Numbered from the stretch's first letter, positions 23,501 to 33,155 are shown. The stretch: DNA of 64,000 nucleotides from Candidatus Cloacimonadota bacterium (GCA_963667145.1 OY762943.1:49576-113575); one strand, 5' to 3'. Made by a program: numbers and translations. Notes: generated by a model not told the origin, from the letters alone.

Positions 23501-25204
23501 ATGACTACTTTAATAGTAATTATTAGTCTGTTGCTTTACGTGTTGCTGTACAAGTCGTACGGCGGTAAACTGACAAAGATGGTGCAAGCGAACGATGATA
23601 ACGAAACTCCAGCTGTTCGTTTGCGGGACGATGTGGATTATGTGCCTGCCAGACCAACTGTGCTCTTTGGACACCATTTTGCTTCCATAGCGGGAGCTGC
23701 CCCGATTATTGGCCCAGTACTTGCTTTAGCTTGGGGTTGGGTACCTGCAATTTTATGGATTTGGTTTGGGAATATTCTCATTGGAGCTGTGCATGATTAT
23801 CTATCGGTGATGGCTTCTGTGCGTTATGATGGGAAGTCTGTCCAGTTTGTGGCTGCTGACGTGATCGGAGTAAGAACCAGTAAGATTTTTTATTGGTTGG
23901 TTCTTTTCATGATTATTTTGGTGATTTCCGCTTTCGGAGCTGTGGTTGGCGGAATGTATGTGGGGCAGCCTGCTGTGGCTTCTTCATATGTGCTCAAATT
24001 GGTTGCTGCTCTCATTTTGGGATATTTGATGTATAGCGTCAAAATGGATTTTCGCCTTGCAACTGCGATTGGTATTGTGCTTCTAATTTTTGCCATTATC
24101 GGTGGAACTTGGATGCCAATCAAACTTGGTTGGGGAACTTGGATGATAATTATTGGCGTGTATATTGTGGTGGCGTCTTCCGTGCCAGTGAATATCTTGC
24201 TGCAACCTCGAGATTATCTCAATTCTTGGCTTCTGTATTTTGGATTGGCGATAGGTCTTATCGCTGCTGTATTCAGTTTCCACGGATTTACCGCTCCTGC
24301 TTTTACTTCGTTTGCTCCTATTATTTCTGGTGGTAAGCCAACTCCATTTTGGCCAGCTATTGTGTTGATAATTGCTTGTGGTTCTTTGTCTGGATTTCAT
24401 GCATTGGTTGGCTCGGGAACTACTTCTAAGCAAGTGAGCAAAGAAAGCGATGTCAAGATTATCGGCTATGGTTCTATGCTCACTGAAGGATTCTTGTCCA
24501 CAATAGTGCTGATTTCGATTGCCGGATTCTCTTTTGGGATTTTGCAAGATGCAGGTACAGGGCTTACTCTGGATAATTGGGGAATGAAATACACAGGGGC
24601 TATGATGAGCAATTTTCCCAAAGCGGCTATGTTCGTTGAGTCTTATGCGAAAATGGTTGGAAGCACTTTCCTCAGCTTCATCCCTGTGAAATTCGTAAAA
24701 GTGATTGCAGGAATGTGGGTGGCTTCTTTCGCCATGACCACGCTTGATACTACTAACCGTTTGGGAAGATACGCTATTTGCGAAGTTTGTGCACCGCTCA
24801 AAGGCAAATCTGACAATTTGCATGCTTTCCTCACCAACAAATGGGTTGCTTCTACGATTCCTGCTTTGGTAGGTATGCTTTTGGCTTATACCAAGAGTTT
24901 CACGATTTTGTGGCCTTCGTTCAGCACGGCAAATCAGCTTTTGGCTTCTATCGTTATGTTTACCAGTGCAGCTTGGTTGTCCAAAAGGCTTAAAGTTAAG
25001 AATTTAAATATGGTTTTGATACCTGCTTATCTTCTGTGGATTACAGTGACCGCCGCAATTTTGTGGTTCAGTTTCGTGGTACTCCCTGGAACTATTGCCA
25101 CTAAACCTGTGACAGGTTACACGGTGATGTGTATCGAAATCACAATGATAATCCTTAACTTTATCTTCATCTACGATTTCCTCAAAACCAGGAAAGAAGC
25201 GTAA
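23501..25204 (+). CDS. cstA: carbon starvation protein A (CstA/BtsT-family transporter)
   Basis: TPAVRLRDDVDYVP, FGHHFASIAGAAPIIGP, QPRDYLN, IACGSLSGFHAL, LWPSFSTANQLLA. Confidence 0.93.
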   Translation: MTTLIVIISLLLYVLLYKSYGGKLTKMVQANDDNETPAVRLRDDVDYVPARPTVLFGHHFASIAGAAPIIGPVLALAWGWVPAILWIWFGNILIGAVHDYLSVMASVRYDGKSVQFVAADVIGVRTSKIFYWLVLFMIILVISAFGAVVGGMYVGQPAVASSYVLKLVAALILGYLMYSVKMDFRLATAIGIVLLIFAIIGGTWMPIKLGWGTWMIIIGVYIVVASSVPVNILLQPRDYLNSWLLYFGLAIGLIAAVFSFHGFTAPAFTSFAPIISGGKPTPFWPAIVLIIACGSLSGFHALVGSGTTSKQVSKESDVKIIGYGSMLTEGFLSTIVLISIAGFSFGILQDAGTGLTLDNWGMKYTGAMMSNFPKAAMFVESYAKMVGSTFLSFIPVKFVKVIAGMWVASFAMTTLDTTNRLGRYAICEVCAPLKGKSDNLHAFLTNKWVASTIPALVGMLLAYTKSFTILWPSFSTANQLLASIVMFTSAAWLSKRLKVKNLNMVLIPAYLLWITVTAAILWFSFVVLPGTIATKPVTGYTVMCIEITMIILNFIFIYDFLKTRKEA

Positions 25205-25216
25205 TTTTAAAAATTA

Positions 25217-25495
25217 ATGTCATTTTTGAAGCTTGATTTTTGGAAAAGGGCATGGGAGACCTTTGAGGCTATTCATCGAGGTAGAGCAGTGGAATCACTG
25301 CAAAATGAGTTGAATGAATTGGAAAACGTGTTTTGTCTGCTATCGATGAGTTGCTTGGTGGGGTTTCCTATGCCCATGTTTTATCATAGTTTGGAGTACT
25401 TACCCGATTTGCAAAAAGAGTTGGAAATGTTTTATCTAAAAGCGGAGCGTTCGGACGATATGTTGGCGACTATCGCTGCTATGAGTGAATTGTGA
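25217..25495 (+). CDS. small CstA-associated protein (resembles cory-CC-star-type proteins)
   Basis: 92 aa, ELENVFCLL..LVGFPMP...SLEYLP; lies between cstA and an ArsA-like ATPase, and its stop overlaps the next start. Confidence 0.75.
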   Translation: MSFLKLDFWKRAWETFEAIHRGRAVESLQNELNELENVFCLLSMSCLVGFPMPMFYHSLEYLPDLQKELEMFYLKAERSDDMLATIAAMSEL

Positions 25496-26385
25496 GACTG
25501 GCGTTCTTTTTGGGAAAAGGCGGAGTAGGGAAATCCACATGTTCTTCGGCTTTGGCTTATCAGTTGGCTACAAAAGGAGAAAAAACTTTATTAGCCTCTT
25601 TTGACCCTGCACATAATTTGGGAGACATTTTCGGTTTGAGATTGTCTGGCAAGATAAAGGGATTTTGTCCTCATCTGGATTTGTTGGAAATAGATTTGCA
25701 GAAAGCGACCGAGAATTACATAGCCAAAACCAAAGAACTGATTAAGCAGGTTTATTCGTACAACACGGCTTATAATGCGGATGGATATTTCAATCTTTTT
25801 CGCTATTTGCCCGGCATTCAAGAATATGCGTCCATCACGGCTTTGCTTGATTTGGTGCAGGAGCAGAAGGGGAATTACGACAACATAATTTTTGATACTC
25901 CTCCCACAGGTCTTACTTTGCGGGTGTTAGCGTTGCCGATGATTTCGATAAAGTGGCTAATGCAACTGAAGAGTTTGCGGGAGAAGATTTTGGACAAAAG
26001 GCATACGATAGCATCTATCAATGACCGCGAAAACAAATTACGTTGTCAGCAAGCGATGAAGACCGACAAAGTGTTGTCCAAAATTTGTCGAATGCTCAGA
26101 TGCTATCAAGAGTTTGACGACTTGTTGAAAAGCAATGAAGCTAAGTGTGGAATTGTTGTGAACCCCGACTTTTTGTCGTTACGCGAATCAGTACGAATAA
26201 AAGATGGATTGAGAGAGATTGGAATTAAGAGCAAGTTTTTGGTAATCAACAAGGTTACAGATGAAGTTCGTGATGCCGTGAAGGAAGCAAAAAAATCTTT
26301 GAACGATGATAACACAATTGATATTGAGATTTGCTGTAATTCATATTCGTACAAATTGAGCGACGATTTAACCAAAATTTTTTGA
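25492..26385 (+). CDS. ArsA/Get3 (TRC40)-family ATPase, single NBD
   Basis: GKGGVGKST, SFDPAHNLGD, LPGIQEY, FDTPPTG.TLR.L.LP, LVINKV. Confidence 0.9.
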   Translation: MRLAFFLGKGGVGKSTCSSALAYQLATKGEKTLLASFDPAHNLGDIFGLRLSGKIKGFCPHLDLLEIDLQKATENYIAKTKELIKQVYSYNTAYNADGYFNLFRYLPGIQEYASITALLDLVQEQKGNYDNIIFDTPPTGLTLRVLALPMISIKWLMQLKSLREKILDKRHTIASINDRENKLRCQQAMKTDKVLSKICRMLRCYQEFDDLLKSNEAKCGIVVNPDFLSLRESVRIKDGLREIGIKSKFLVINKVTDEVRDAVKEAKKSLNDDNTIDIEICCNSYSYKLSDDLTKIF

Positions 26386-26402
26386 GGAGAAAAGAGATTA
26401 TT

Positions 26403-27023
26403 ATGGAGCAAAACCCTTATTTTTATTTGTTCACAGCTTTGACGATAGCGTTGGCTTTCAGCTATTTTGTGGGTGCAAGGCGAAACAAAAAAATTTCCAG
26501 AGTTATTTTTAGAAATTTAGAAGATATTCTCAAGCCGAGCAAAAAAACTTACACCAACATTGGTGGTTTGATTGGCTATAATTTCGATTACGCCAAGATG
26601 AAGGCGAAGAAGATTTCCCGTGTAAATGGTGTTTTGACTTTGATTCCCAGACAGTCGCCTCTATATTTGCCGATTGCCAAACTTCTTGGAAGAAAAGACA
26701 AGCTGTACATAACCATTTTTGTAACGAATGTGGGCTTGAAACATACGTGGCACATCGTACACAACAAATGCAAAGAGCGTATTGACGTGGCAAATTTGCA
26801 GTGTGATAAGCTCAATTCAGGTGGTCAATCTGTGAATTTATTTCATCAAGAAGGCGACGAATGTGTAGCTATCAAAAAATTCATTGCAAATAACAGTTTG
26901 AAGCATTTGCGTCATTTGGCATATCATCCCGAGGACAAGTGCTTTTCTATGTTGTTGAAGCCAGGGAATATTTCCGAGGAGTTTGAGAAAATTTACGGCT
27001 TCATCAACTCGCTGATTAGTTAG
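26403..27023 (+). CDS. single-TM hypothetical protein with CCDC47/DUF1682-like motifs
   Basis: N-terminal TM followed by YFVGARRNKKI, LTLIPRQ and KDKLYITIFV. The ORF is well supported; the family call was made by eye. Confidence 0.65.
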   Translation: MEQNPYFYLFTALTIALAFSYFVGARRNKKISRVIFRNLEDILKPSKKTYTNIGGLIGYNFDYAKMKAKKISRVNGVLTLIPRQSPLYLPIAKLLGRKDKLYITIFVTNVGLKHTWHIVHNKCKERIDVANLQCDKLNSGGQSVNLFHQEGDECVAIKKFIANNSLKHLRHLAYHPEDKCFSMLLKPGNISEEFEKIYGFINSLIS

Positions 27024-30590: not shown

Positions 30591-30944
30591 ATGACTAAAG
30601 TATCAAAAAATTTACATTTGAGGTTGTTCGAGCTTTTTGGTAATCCGAATAAGAAATCGAAAAATAGTTACAGGATAATGAGTAGCGGTGAGCGGGAATT
30701 TTTTACTGGCTCAGCTCAGTCCTACTTGTTGGATTTGCTTTACAGCTCTTTTATCGATTCTGGCACTTTCGAGACTATCATGGAAGTTTCAGGTGGATTT
30801 TACCGATTTTACAAAGAGAAAATAGAGGTTGAAAATCTGAAAAAGATTGTTGAGTCTGTGGTTTTTTCGGGCGAAGAGAGTAGCACGGATGCGAATATCA
30901 GTCTTATGGACAAAATTTATCCCGAAGAAGACGAGGTTAATTAG
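30591..30944 (+). CDS. Smg/DUF494-like protein
   Basis: RIMSSGEREFF...YLL.L...FE.IME pattern, directly upstream of topA (the usual position). Confidence 0.6.
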   Translation: MTKVSKNLHLRLFELFGNPNKKSKNSYRIMSSGEREFFTGSAQSYLLDLLYSSFIDSGTFETIMEVSGGFYRFYKEKIEVENLKKIVESVVFSGEESSTDANISLMDKIYPEEDEVN

Positions 30945-33155
30945 ATGGCGAAAAATCTTTTGATAGTAGAGTCACCGGCTAAGAGCAAAACAATTTCCAA
31001 ATTTTTGGGGAGTAGTTTTCGGATTGAATCTTCCATGGGGCACATTCGTGATTTGCCCAAGAGCAAGCTGGGTGTGGATGTGGAGAACGATTTTGAGGTC
31101 AAATACACCAACGATAGGGGAAAAGCTAAGATTACCAAAAACCTCAGGGAAGCGGCGAAAGAGGCTAAAGAGATTTATTTGGCTGCCGACCCCGATAGAG
31201 AGGGAGAGGCGATTGCTTGGCATCTGACGGAGCTTCTGAAAAAAGAGATTAAGGATAAGCCTGTTTATCGGGTGATTTTCAACGAGATAACTCACAGTGC
31301 TGTGCAGAAAGCTGTGCAAAATCCAATGGATATAAATATGCATATGGTGAACTCTCAGCAGGCACGACGAGTTTTGGATAGATTGGTTGGGTATGGGATT
31401 TCGCCATTAATTTGGCGTGTTATTTATTATGGACTGTCTGCTGGCAGGGTGCAGTCGGTTGCTTTGCGGATTATTTGCGAACGAGAGGAACTGATTAACG
31501 CTTTTGTTTCGGAAGAGTATTGGGAAATTTTCGGCTTCTTTGGCAAGGGCAAGTTTTCGCCATTCAAAGCTAAATTGGTGCAAGTTGCAGGAGAAAAAGC
31601 GGATTTTGCCAACGAAAGTCAGGTTGAAGATTTATTGAGCAAAATTTCCGACAAGAGCGTAAAAATTTCCAACATTGTGGAGAGCGAGAGGCGGAATAAT
31701 CCTTTTCCTCCGTTCATCACGTCCACTTTGCAGAGGGCAGCGTCCACTTATTTGGGATTTTCCGCCAAACGCACGATGGCTATCGCTCAGAGGCTCTACG
31801 AAGGTGTGGACTTGAAGGCACAGAGCGTCGGTTTGATTACGTATATGCGTACCGATTCCGTTAGAATGTCCGAGCAGGCTGTGCAGTCGGCGAGAGAGTT
31901 CATTGTGGAGAAATTTGGGAAAAATTCACTTGAGGCGAAACCACGCCACTTCAAAGCAAAAAAGGGAGCACAAGATGCTCACGAGGCTATCAGACCGACG
32001 GACGTTACCAAAACTCCCGAGAGTATCAAAGATTTTTTAACTTCCGAGCAGTTCAAACTTTATGAGCTCATTTGGCAGAGGTTTGTGGCAACACAGATGA
32101 AACCTGCTGTACTGAAATCTAAGAAGGTTGAAATCGAAAAGGGCGATGCTTTGTTTGAGGCTCAGGGCAGCCATGTCGTTGACCCCGGATTTACTGTTTG
32201 CTATAGATTTACCAAATTGTCGCTGGGAGAGAATATCGATTCTGGCTATGCTGTCGGCGATGTAATGGATGTTGAGGAGATTGTGCCTGAGCAGAAGTTC
32301 ACCAATCCGCCTGCACGCTACACGGAGAGTTCGCTCATCAAGGAGTTGGAAAGCAATGGCATCGGCAGACCTTCCACGTATGCAAGTATTTTGTCCACCA
32401 TTCAGGACAGAGGCTATGTGGAGCTACAGGAGAAGAAATTTTACGCTTTGGAGCTGGGACTTGCAGTGAATAACTTTTTGGTAGGCAGTTTCGATTCTTT
32501 TTTCAACACGGAGTTCACTTCTGCTATGGAGAACGATTTGGACGAGATAAGCAATGGCAAGTTGGACTGGAAAAAATTCTTGCGGACTTATTATGATGCC
32601 ATGTGTGCCTTGATGAAGAAGGTGAATGTCACGAAAGCCAAAGCAAATTTGGTGAAGCCAACGAAAACTAAATGTCCCGAATGTGGCAAGAAGTTGGTTA
32701 TCAAGTGGGGACGTAACGGACAATTTTTGACGTGTAGCAACTATCCTTCCTGCAAATTCTCGGCTAATTTCAGCAAAGATTCCAAAGGGGAAATTGTCAT
32801 TGAGAAAGAGAAAGTGTTGGACGATGCTTGTCCTGAATGTGGGAGTAAATTGACTATCAAGAAAGGACGTTTTGGAGAATTTGTGGCTTGTACGGGTTAT
32901 CCTAAGTGTAAATTTTCCAAGCCGTTGACTTTGGGCGTGAAGTGCCCCGAATGTGGCGTTGGAGAGATTGCCCAGAAGATGAGCAAAAAGGGCATTTTTT
33001 ATGCGTGTACCCAATATCCCAAGTGCAAATTTGCCACGAGCTACAAGCCTGTTCCAGTTAATTGTCCTGAATGTGGGAATCACTACATGGAGATAAAAAC
33101 GAAAAAAGGTAAAGAAATAAAAATCTGTCCCAAGTGCGGACAAGAAATAATGTAA
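30945..33155 (+). CDS. topA: DNA topoisomerase I
   Basis: LLIVESPAK, GHIRDLP, DPDREGE, SAGRVQS, ITYMRTDS, C-terminal zinc ribbons. Confidence 0.97.
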   Translation: MAKNLLIVESPAKSKTISKFLGSSFRIESSMGHIRDLPKSKLGVDVENDFEVKYTNDRGKAKITKNLREAAKEAKEIYLAADPDREGEAIAWHLTELLKKEIKDKPVYRVIFNEITHSAVQKAVQNPMDINMHMVNSQQARRVLDRLVGYGISPLIWRVIYYGLSAGRVQSVALRIICEREELINAFVSEEYWEIFGFFGKGKFSPFKAKLVQVAGEKADFANESQVEDLLSKISDKSVKISNIVESERRNNPFPPFITSTLQRAASTYLGFSAKRTMAIAQRLYEGVDLKAQSVGLITYMRTDSVRMSEQAVQSAREFIVEKFGKNSLEAKPRHFKAKKGAQDAHEAIRPTDVTKTPESIKDFLTSEQFKLYELIWQRFVATQMKPAVLKSKKVEIEKGDALFEAQGSHVVDPGFTVCYRFTKLSLGENIDSGYAVGDVMDVEEIVPEQKFTNPPARYTESSLIKELESNGIGRPSTYASILSTIQDRGYVELQEKKFYALELGLAVNNFLVGSFDSFFNTEFTSAMENDLDEISNGKLDWKKFLRTYYDAMCALMKKVNVTKAKANLVKPTKTKCPECGKKLVIKWGRNGQFLTCSNYPSCKFSANFSKDSKGEIVIEKEKVLDDACPECGSKLTIKKGRFGEFVACTGYPKCKFSKPLTLGVKCPECGVGEIAQKMSKKGIFYACTQYPKCKFATSYKPVPVNCPECGNHYMEIKTKKGKEIKICPKCGQEIM

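Follow-up and report, generated by a model that had tools for sequence, protein, structure and literature searches.

The gene at 26403-27023 is the last of four genes that form a compact block on the + strand of the window, the 64,000-nucleotide stretch of DNA analyzed here, in the order CstA, CstX, ATPase and CstY. The ATPase start overlaps the CstX stop by 4 nt, and CstY begins 17 nt past the ATPase stop. The genes of the block and the features within and ahead of CstY are as follows.

23501-25204, + strand: CstA-family permease, 567 aa, the first gene (PF02554, E = 1.3e-122, residues 3-517 against profile positions 3-559/560)
25217-25495, + strand: CstX/DUF7990, 92 aa (homologues carry precomputed PF25952; weak match to NCBIfam "cory-CC-star")
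25492-26385, + strand: single-domain ArsA/Get3-family P-loop ATPase, 297 aa (PF02374, E = 2e-51; TIGR00345, 172 bits)
26384-26396, + strand: putative ribosome-binding region, the purine-rich GAGGAGAAAAGAG ahead of ATG 26403, read from the sequence
26403-27023, + strand: CstY, 206 aa, single-pass membrane protein with a predicted CCDC47-fold cytoplasmic domain, from ATG 26403 to a stop codon that ends at 27023
26418-26474, + strand: N-terminal TM helix FYLFTALTIALAFSYFVGA, residues ~6-24 (Kyte-Doolittle 1.75)
26463-26495, + strand: juxtamembrane motif YFVGARRNKKI (Y21-G24-N28), residues 21-31, located by string match
26634-26723, + strand: LTLIPRQS...GRKDKLYITIFV block with invariant R83 and D99, from an 87-member alignment

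A preliminary description of this DNA had read the protein as a short prokaryotic relative of CCDC47, a PAT-complex subunit whose sole known role is in the biogenesis of multipass membrane proteins. Its ORF coordinates and the three peptide strings on which it drew (YFVGARRNKKI, LTLIPRQ and KDKLYITIFV) are exact. LTLIPRQ makes up CstY residues 78-84 (nt 26634-26654) and KDKLYITIFV residues 98-107 (nt 26694-26723), and the TM segment runs straight into YFVGARRNKKI, in agreement with the placement of a TM helix directly before that motif. An in-frame TTG at 26382 was rejected as the start codon, as the homologues all begin with MEQ.P and GAGGAGAAAAGAG precedes ATG 26403. A spurious ORF at 26403-27023 is ruled out by conservation over ~200 clusters.

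In all 10 lineages sampled, among them Candidatus Moduliflexus, a TA06 MAG and one whose contig bears a ThrRS editing domain of archaeal type, the ATPase gene lies upstream of CstY. Where the two genes do not adjoin, what stands between them is a small DUF59 gene (some lineages) or an insertion of three genes (one lineage). CstA and DUF7990 genes are found ahead of the ATPase in nine lineages, and no recognizable CstA or DUF7990 gene occurs upstream on the contig of the tenth. In other lineages the end of the ATPase gene abuts or overlaps the start of CstY, often by 1-4 nt; the CstA-CstX-ATPase-CstY cassette is tightly packed and often translationally coupled. A scan for promoters and terminators did not delimit the operon. 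A FeS_assembly_P/DUF59 gene adjoins CstY in 4-5 of the 10 lineages and is absent from the window.

A cstA-cstX-arsA-cstY cluster was described bioinformatically by Castillo and Saier (2010; PMC2963123), who gave the cstX product as ~90 aa with a single predicted TMS, the ArsA homologue as single-domain and ~300-330 aa, and the cstY product, from five archaea only, as ~210 aa with one TMS. According to the same study, CstA, CstX, the ArsA homologue and CstY co-evolve; its authors proposed that CstA is energized by the ArsA homologue with CstX as a linker, while CstY would be a possibly non-essential auxiliary protein. Characterized members of the CstA family transport peptides or pyruvate (NCBIfam name; PMC2963123). 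The window protein fits the CstY of Castillo and Saier by size, TM count and operon position. Two homologs of ER membrane-biogenesis factors in one bacterial operon would, according to the preliminary description, be notable: a CCDC47-like gene and an ArsA/Get3-family gene do stand together here, but their pairing is not new, the cluster having been described in 2010.

An exhaustive profile search at E <= 1e-3 places 202 clusters (50% identity) in the CstY family; the best 150 of the 202 are mostly ~200-230 aa in length, with none longer than 266 aa. Seven close relatives, with 54-94% identity, were retrieved by a word-indexed search. Members were found in KSB3/Moduliflexus, TA06 and Crenarchaeota/Thermoproteota MAGs, those in an archaeal context including L006 and the Thermoproteota member P0098. 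The family has no Pfam or NCBIfam model, and its homologues carry no precomputed Pfam domain. The degenerate DNA pattern TL.PR[QH]S.L[YF].P(8)D matched 7 loci, and CstY is encoded at none of them.

We aligned 87 full-length CstY members, which are only ~25% identical. R83 and D99 are the sole invariant residues (87/87 each), and conservation reaches at least 90% at G24, N28, G54, G58, P82, P90 and H117 (e.g., G24 in 83 and N28 in 79 of the 87 members). H117 is found in 83 members, H171 in 75 and E115 in 62. Given the invariance of R83 and D99 and the columns conserved to at least 90% at an overall identity of ~25%, the CstY motifs represent the core of the family rather than chance. A single N-terminal TM and no other TM is present in 82 of the 87 members. 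The positive-inside rule is used to orient TM helices, and in CstY the net charge rises from -0.5 ahead of the TM to +3.7 over the 15 residues that follow. CstY is therefore predicted to be N-out/C-in, with a domain of ~165 residues in the cytoplasm, and this charge pattern implies the same orientation relative to the cytosol as that of CCDC47.

The structure of CstY was modeled with AlphaFold2 from the 87-sequence alignment, which contained CstY-family sequences only and no CCDC47 sequence, and without templates. The resulting model (pLDDT 96.7, pTM 0.90) consists of one continuous helix at residues 5-43 followed by an alpha/beta domain. A model built from 8 close homologues reached a pLDDT of 51 and was discarded. 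We then compared the retained model with 350,542 PDB chains using Foldseek. Just two chains pass E <= 1e-3, each of them a CCDC47 with prob 1.00: 7tm3_4 (E = 1e-7, TMq 0.66) and 9i78_4 from Chaetomium thermophilum (E = 1.3e-6, TMq 0.68). The remaining CCDC47 entry of the three deposited, 6w6l_7, was recovered with prob 0.99 and TMq 0.53. All the matches to proteins other than CCDC47 (PYL/Bet v1 and Ig domains) have TM values of ~0.2, and a Bet v1/PYL-like fold, which reaches that value only, was rejected for CstY. The alignments between CstY and CCDC47 show 10-13% identity and an rmsd of 5.4-5.9 A. Since the AlphaFold2 alignment held no CCDC47 sequence, the fold match constitutes independent evidence. 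These modeling results support the view that the cytoplasmic domain of CstY shares the fold of the CCDC47 globular domain, in a match that appears both significant and specific. The preliminary description had made its reading depend on CCDC47 emerging as a significant match by profile or by structure, and a structural match was found, with CCDC47 chains at the top of the PDB.

Similarity to CCDC47 can also be traced at the sequence level. The best Pfam match of the window CstY is PF07946 (E = 0.001), where residues 9-108 align with positions 7-122 of the 326-position profile with a score of 18.7 bits, the cutoff being 27.7. The profile named for this comparison in the preliminary description thus does match, but below its threshold, and by Pfam's own criterion CstY is not a member of PF07946. 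Among the 87 CstY members, 19 match PF07946 at E <= 0.01, all of them short of the gathering cutoff; the best score belongs to a TA06 member, P0008 (22.7 bits, E = 6.2e-5, residues 8-108). PF07946 is the sole recurrent family over the 87 members, the next family being matched by 3, and less than one chance match to any Pfam family would be expected at E <= 0.01 across the set. No CCDC47 signal was obtained from 4 archaeal-type CstY scanned against Pfam, so that the sequence similarity between CstY and CCDC47 is lineage-dependent. Part of the PF07946 similarity is located in the TM and basic stretch, which is prone to compositional matches.

Two CstY profiles searched against the PDB sequences retrieved no CCDC47 chain at E <= 10. 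For a direct comparison we used human CCDC47, whose query sequence is identical to PDB 6w6l chain 7, and a CCDC47 profile that is vertebrate-only (Neff 1.7), the best 120 homologue matches all being at least 81% identical. With hhalign, CstY against this vertebrate profile gives E = 0.034-0.038 and a probability of 1.4-1.5%. The profile is shallow, and the local alignment spans 26 columns, which lie at the juxtamembrane motif (E = 0.038, probability 1.4%). At a relaxed alignment threshold, CstY residues 2-204 are collinear with CCDC47 residues 133-386, with an equally weak score. The CstY HMM scores 8.7 bits on human CCDC47 residues 130-400, and the maximum of 2000 shuffles is 7.4. Both hhalign and HMMER pair Y21-G24-N28 of CstY with Y153-G156-N160 of human CCDC47, where the juxtamembrane stretch reads N-Y153-I-I-G156-K-N-K-N160-S-R-L. 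Furthermore, hhalign aligns R83 and D99 of CstY with R227 and D243 of CCDC47, the residues of each pair being 16 residues apart; both CCDC47 residues are the same in all 18 sequences of a vertebrate-only sample.

The neighboring ATPase passes TIGR00345 (GET3_arsA_TRC40) with 172 bits, above the cutoff of 135, and matches PF02374 (ArsA_ATPase). It is collinear over its full length with the archaeal Get3-type structures 3ug6 and 3zq6 and also with eukaryotic Get3/TRC40, whereas only the N-terminal half of two-domain ArsA aligns with it. The P-loop GKGGVGKS and the motifs DPAHN and DTPPTG are conserved in an alignment of seven lineages, in which there is no invariant cysteine column. Consequently, neither the CxxC zinc motif of Get3 nor the metalloid site of ArsA is conserved in the ATPase. 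The earlier naming of this neighbor as a Get3 homolog thus holds at the family level and not for the Get3-type CxxC, and a function in tail-anchor targeting is not indicated by the sequence. On inspection by eye, the helical subdomain of the ATPase looks charged or amphipathic rather than Met-rich and hydrophobic.

CstX has the conserved core ELxExENxFxLL...G.P.P, and all 7 aligned members match NCBIfam NF041419 below its cutoff. Its hydrophobic center has Kyte-Doolittle values of 1.0-1.7 and is rich in Gly and Pro, and a TM helix in CstX appears doubtful from its sequence. Asterix and CCDC47 form an obligate complex, and CstX was considered as a relative of Asterix (WDR83OS), a candidate that gained no support: a CstX profile searched against the PDB sequences did not match Asterix or return anything meaningful. 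Similarly, no Asterix-like gene was recognized in the CstY neighborhoods examined.

Because the fold match is specific and the weak sequence evidence points in the same direction, we consider that the TM and cytoplasmic domain of CstY are very probably a remote homologue of the CCDC47 core, that is, a product of homology rather than convergence. The earlier reading of a short prokaryotic CCDC47-like protein is borne out by the fold match together with weak but consistent sequence evidence, and the same evidence supports regarding CstY as a minimal prokaryotic variant of the CCDC47 fold. The likeness could instead have arisen by convergence on a simple architecture of one TM plus an alpha/beta domain, in which case CstY would be an unrelated auxiliary protein of CstA and the shared motifs coincidental. 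Such an origin would account for sequence-profile statistics that all remain below threshold, for the archaeal CstY members without a CCDC47 signal, and for Foldseek alignments of 10-13% identity at 5.4-5.9 A. It would not account readily for CCDC47 being the unique structural match in the PDB (prob 1.00, all three deposited entries recovered), for 19 of the 87 members independently picking PF07946 where less than one chance match is expected, for the coincidence of invariant R83/D99 with vertebrate-invariant R227/D243 in both identity and spacing, or for the identical topology of the two proteins. We therefore hold convergence to be very unlikely.

What CstY does in the cassette is a separate matter. 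In the reading that we favor, which is probably but by no means certainly correct, CstY is a homologue of the CCDC47 core that belongs to the CstA cassette and acts as the docking subunit for the ATPase at CstA. It would be a membrane-tethered cytoplasmic docking platform and not a catalyst, as CCDC47 is in the multipass translocon. Together with CstX it would hold the soluble ATPase dimer against the CstA permease, and transport or gating by CstA would become coupled to the binding and hydrolysis of ATP, in the manner of ArsA and ArsB. This docking proposal extends that of Saier, with the scaffolding by CCDC47 as its model. We infer both the physical interaction of CstY with the ATPase and CstA and the coupling to ATP; weighed solely as a mechanism, the docking-platform role may come close to an even chance without quite attaining it. 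Alternatively, the ATPase, CstY and CstX might form a dedicated membrane-protein biogenesis module, a prokaryotic counterpart of GET/PAT that helps in the insertion or assembly of CstA or other clients. The ATPase would then chaperone hydrophobic segments, with CstY as a receptor or an intramembrane-chaperone scaffold, and transport would not be energized. CstY does share fold and topology with CCDC47, a biogenesis factor; the ATPase aligns over its full length with archaeal Get3-type proteins and passes TIGR00345; the multipass permease of the cassette could itself be the client; and the pairing of CstY with a small protein that has a hydrophobic center resembles that of CCDC47 with Asterix. 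These points are offset by the lack of a conserved CxxC pair in the ATPase and the charged or amphipathic look of its helical subdomain (by eye), by a CstX that is not detectably related to Asterix and whose TM is doubtful, by a cassette with no Oxa1/YidC-type insertase, and by a CstY that does not have the ribosome-binding helices of CCDC47. Strict co-evolution with CstA (PMC2963123) suits a permanent subunit at least equally well, and we judge a biogenesis module to be unlikely. Decidedly unlikely, in our estimate, is the larger proposition that CCDC47 descends from a prokaryotic CstY-type protein partnered by a Get3/ArsA ATPase, with CstX-ATPase-CstY as a machine for the insertion or assembly of CstA and a forerunner of PAT/GET.

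The cassette might also be a metal or cofactor system, composed of a SIMIBI-class ATPase, a DUF59 (FeS_assembly_P) protein and CstY, in which CstA moves a metal-linked substrate and E115, H117, H171 and D99 of CstY could form a putative metal site. Relatives of the ATPase in the ArsA family are metalloid and metal chaperone ATPases, which counts in favor of such a system, as do the DUF59/FeS_assembly_P gene that adjoins CstY in 4-5 of the 10 lineages and the conservation of the four residues (H117 83/87, H171 75/87, E115 62/87 and D99 87/87). It is nevertheless highly improbable, as the DUF59 gene is missing from the window and about half of the lineages, no cysteine of the ATPase is conserved, and the characterized CstA-family members carry peptides or pyruvate (PMC2963123). 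Docking of the ATPase at CstA by CstY remains our preferred reading.

The Oxa1-type proteins TMCO1, EMC3 and Get1, together with Get3, are ER insertion factors with prokaryotic relatives. In the literature found, the distribution of CCDC47 is discussed within eukaryotes only, as a component of the multipass translocon, and no paper on CCDC47, DUF1682 or CstY was found that ties CstY or any prokaryotic protein to CCDC47. The link between CstY and CCDC47 is thus the new element here, and the operon was already known (2010, PMC2963123). This link comes as a surprise to the field and can be tested directly: it makes CstY a candidate for the evolutionary origin of CCDC47, as well as a small, tractable system for learning what the CCDC47 globular domain binds, and it gives the accessory genes of CstA transporters (CstY, CstX and the ATPase) a predicted fold and a testable role. 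Should the likeness prove only structural, what is left is a useful annotation for an orphan family.

Compared with the CstY of 2010, which came from five archaea, the family is extended here to bacteria (the window, KSB3 and TA06). The CstY of that study, to which the window protein is matched by description, was of unknown fold, whereas a predicted fold and a probable eukaryotic relative are now assigned to it. In the ArsA-ArsB pump, as in the cassette, the gene for a soluble ArsA-family ATPase accompanies that for a secondary-type permease, and docking and ATP coupling have been proposed. Unlike ArsA, the ATPase of the cassette is single-domain (297 aa) and lacks the cysteines that bind metalloids; CstA stands in place of ArsB or Acr3 as the permease, and CstX and CstY have no counterpart in ars operons. 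The GET pathway likewise pairs a Get3/ArsA-family ATPase with a membrane protein bearing a domain on the cytoplasmic side. In contrast to the Get1/Get2 receptor, CstY is not Oxa1/Get1-like and has one TM plus an alpha/beta domain, and the ATPase differs from that of GET in having no conserved CxxC and no evident tail-anchored client.

The CstY genes sit with a permease and an ArsA-type ATPase, whereas eukaryotic CCDC47 acts at Sec61; in cryo-EM work its globular domain curls from the membrane beside TMCO1 and contacts Sec61. CstY, with 206 aa, is much smaller than CCDC47, with 483 aa. It has only 5 residues before the TM and lacks both the signal peptide and the acidic, Ca-binding lumenal region of CCDC47 (42% Asp/Glu in human residues 21-130). 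It also lacks the C-terminal coiled coil and latch helices, the parts of CCDC47 that reach the ribosome. In the AlphaFold2 model the chain of CstY stops at residue 206, where the last helix of its globular domain finishes, as the preliminary description had predicted in denying it a C-terminal coiled coil, and charged residues make up 25% of its tail against 50% of the last 100 aa of human CCDC47. What CstY and CCDC47 (PF07946/DUF1682; 6W6L chain 7, 7TM3 chain 4 and 9I78 chain 4) have in common is a single TM with the N-terminus outside and a cytoplasmic domain, a juxtamembrane Y-x-x-G-x-x-x-N motif, and an R-Q...D block with an identical spacing of 16 residues.

CstY, the single-TM protein with a CCDC47-fold cytoplasmic domain, is adjoined by a gene of about 90 amino acids of the FeS_assembly_P/DUF59 family (PF01883) in four or five of the ten lineages sampled, located either between the ATPase gene and CstY or directly after CstY. 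The homologous loci (L handles) that carry it are as follows.

L004, 5717-5989, FeS_assembly_P/DUF59 gene
L017, 4502-4774, FeS_assembly_P/DUF59 gene
L019, 4714-4839, FeS_assembly_P/DUF59 gene
L020, 5634-5906, FeS_assembly_P/DUF59 gene
L018, 3379-3591, FeS_assembly_P/DUF59 gene, possible case

The window has no PF01883 gene. The FeS_assembly_P/DUF59 gene may be an optional fifth member of the cassette, and its membership might hint at metal or Fe-S chemistry.

At L005 (2804-5804), in one genome of 2.7 Mb, the ATPase and CstY genes are separated by an insertion of three unrelated genes, of which one is Schlafen/AlbA_2-like and two lack a Pfam match, which indicates that the pair is separable with both genes kept. 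On the 9.3-kb contig L003 (1-6621), the CstY-ATPase-CstX-CstA cassette is duplicated in inverted orientation around a central, fragmented CstA; this arrangement probably arose as an artefact of long-read assembly and is not biological.

CstX (DUF7990) is encoded in the window as listed here.

25217-25495, CstX (DUF7990)

The CstX proteins aligned from seven lineages all give sub-cutoff matches to the NCBIfam model NF041419, "cory-CC-star protein", the best with E 1.2e-6. Instead of Cys-Cys, the C-terminus of the window CstX reads ...MSEL. The richness of its hydrophobic centre in Gly and Pro casts doubt on the published assignment of a "single TMS" to CstX.

The GC content of the window is about 37-45%, and GC skew is positive over nearly its whole length, the sole dip being at about 48-56 kb. 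From 21 to 47 kb, the + strand carries the majority of the long ORFs. Across 1-64000 there are three tRNAs (Val-GAC, Ala-GGC and Leu-TAG) and no rRNA. A DUF494 (Smg-like) gene of 117 aa (30591-30944) lies directly upstream of topA (30945-33155), the two abutting without intergenic sequence, and in the related genomes L001 and L002 this gene pair is found after glyS. The genomes of close bacterial relatives are about 1.55-1.58 Mb.

In the 261-aa CstY family representative P0012, the N-terminal half of CstY is present twice, followed by out-of-frame-looking sequence. A tandem duplication is one likely origin, an artefact of assembly or frameshift the other. The Pfam CCDC47 signal is present in some bacterial CstY proteins, among them the TA06 member P0008 and the window protein, and absent from the four archaeal-type members tested (P0098, P0180, P0182 and P0183). 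At the level of sequence, this distribution is the opposite of that predicted by simple archaea-to-eukaryote descent.
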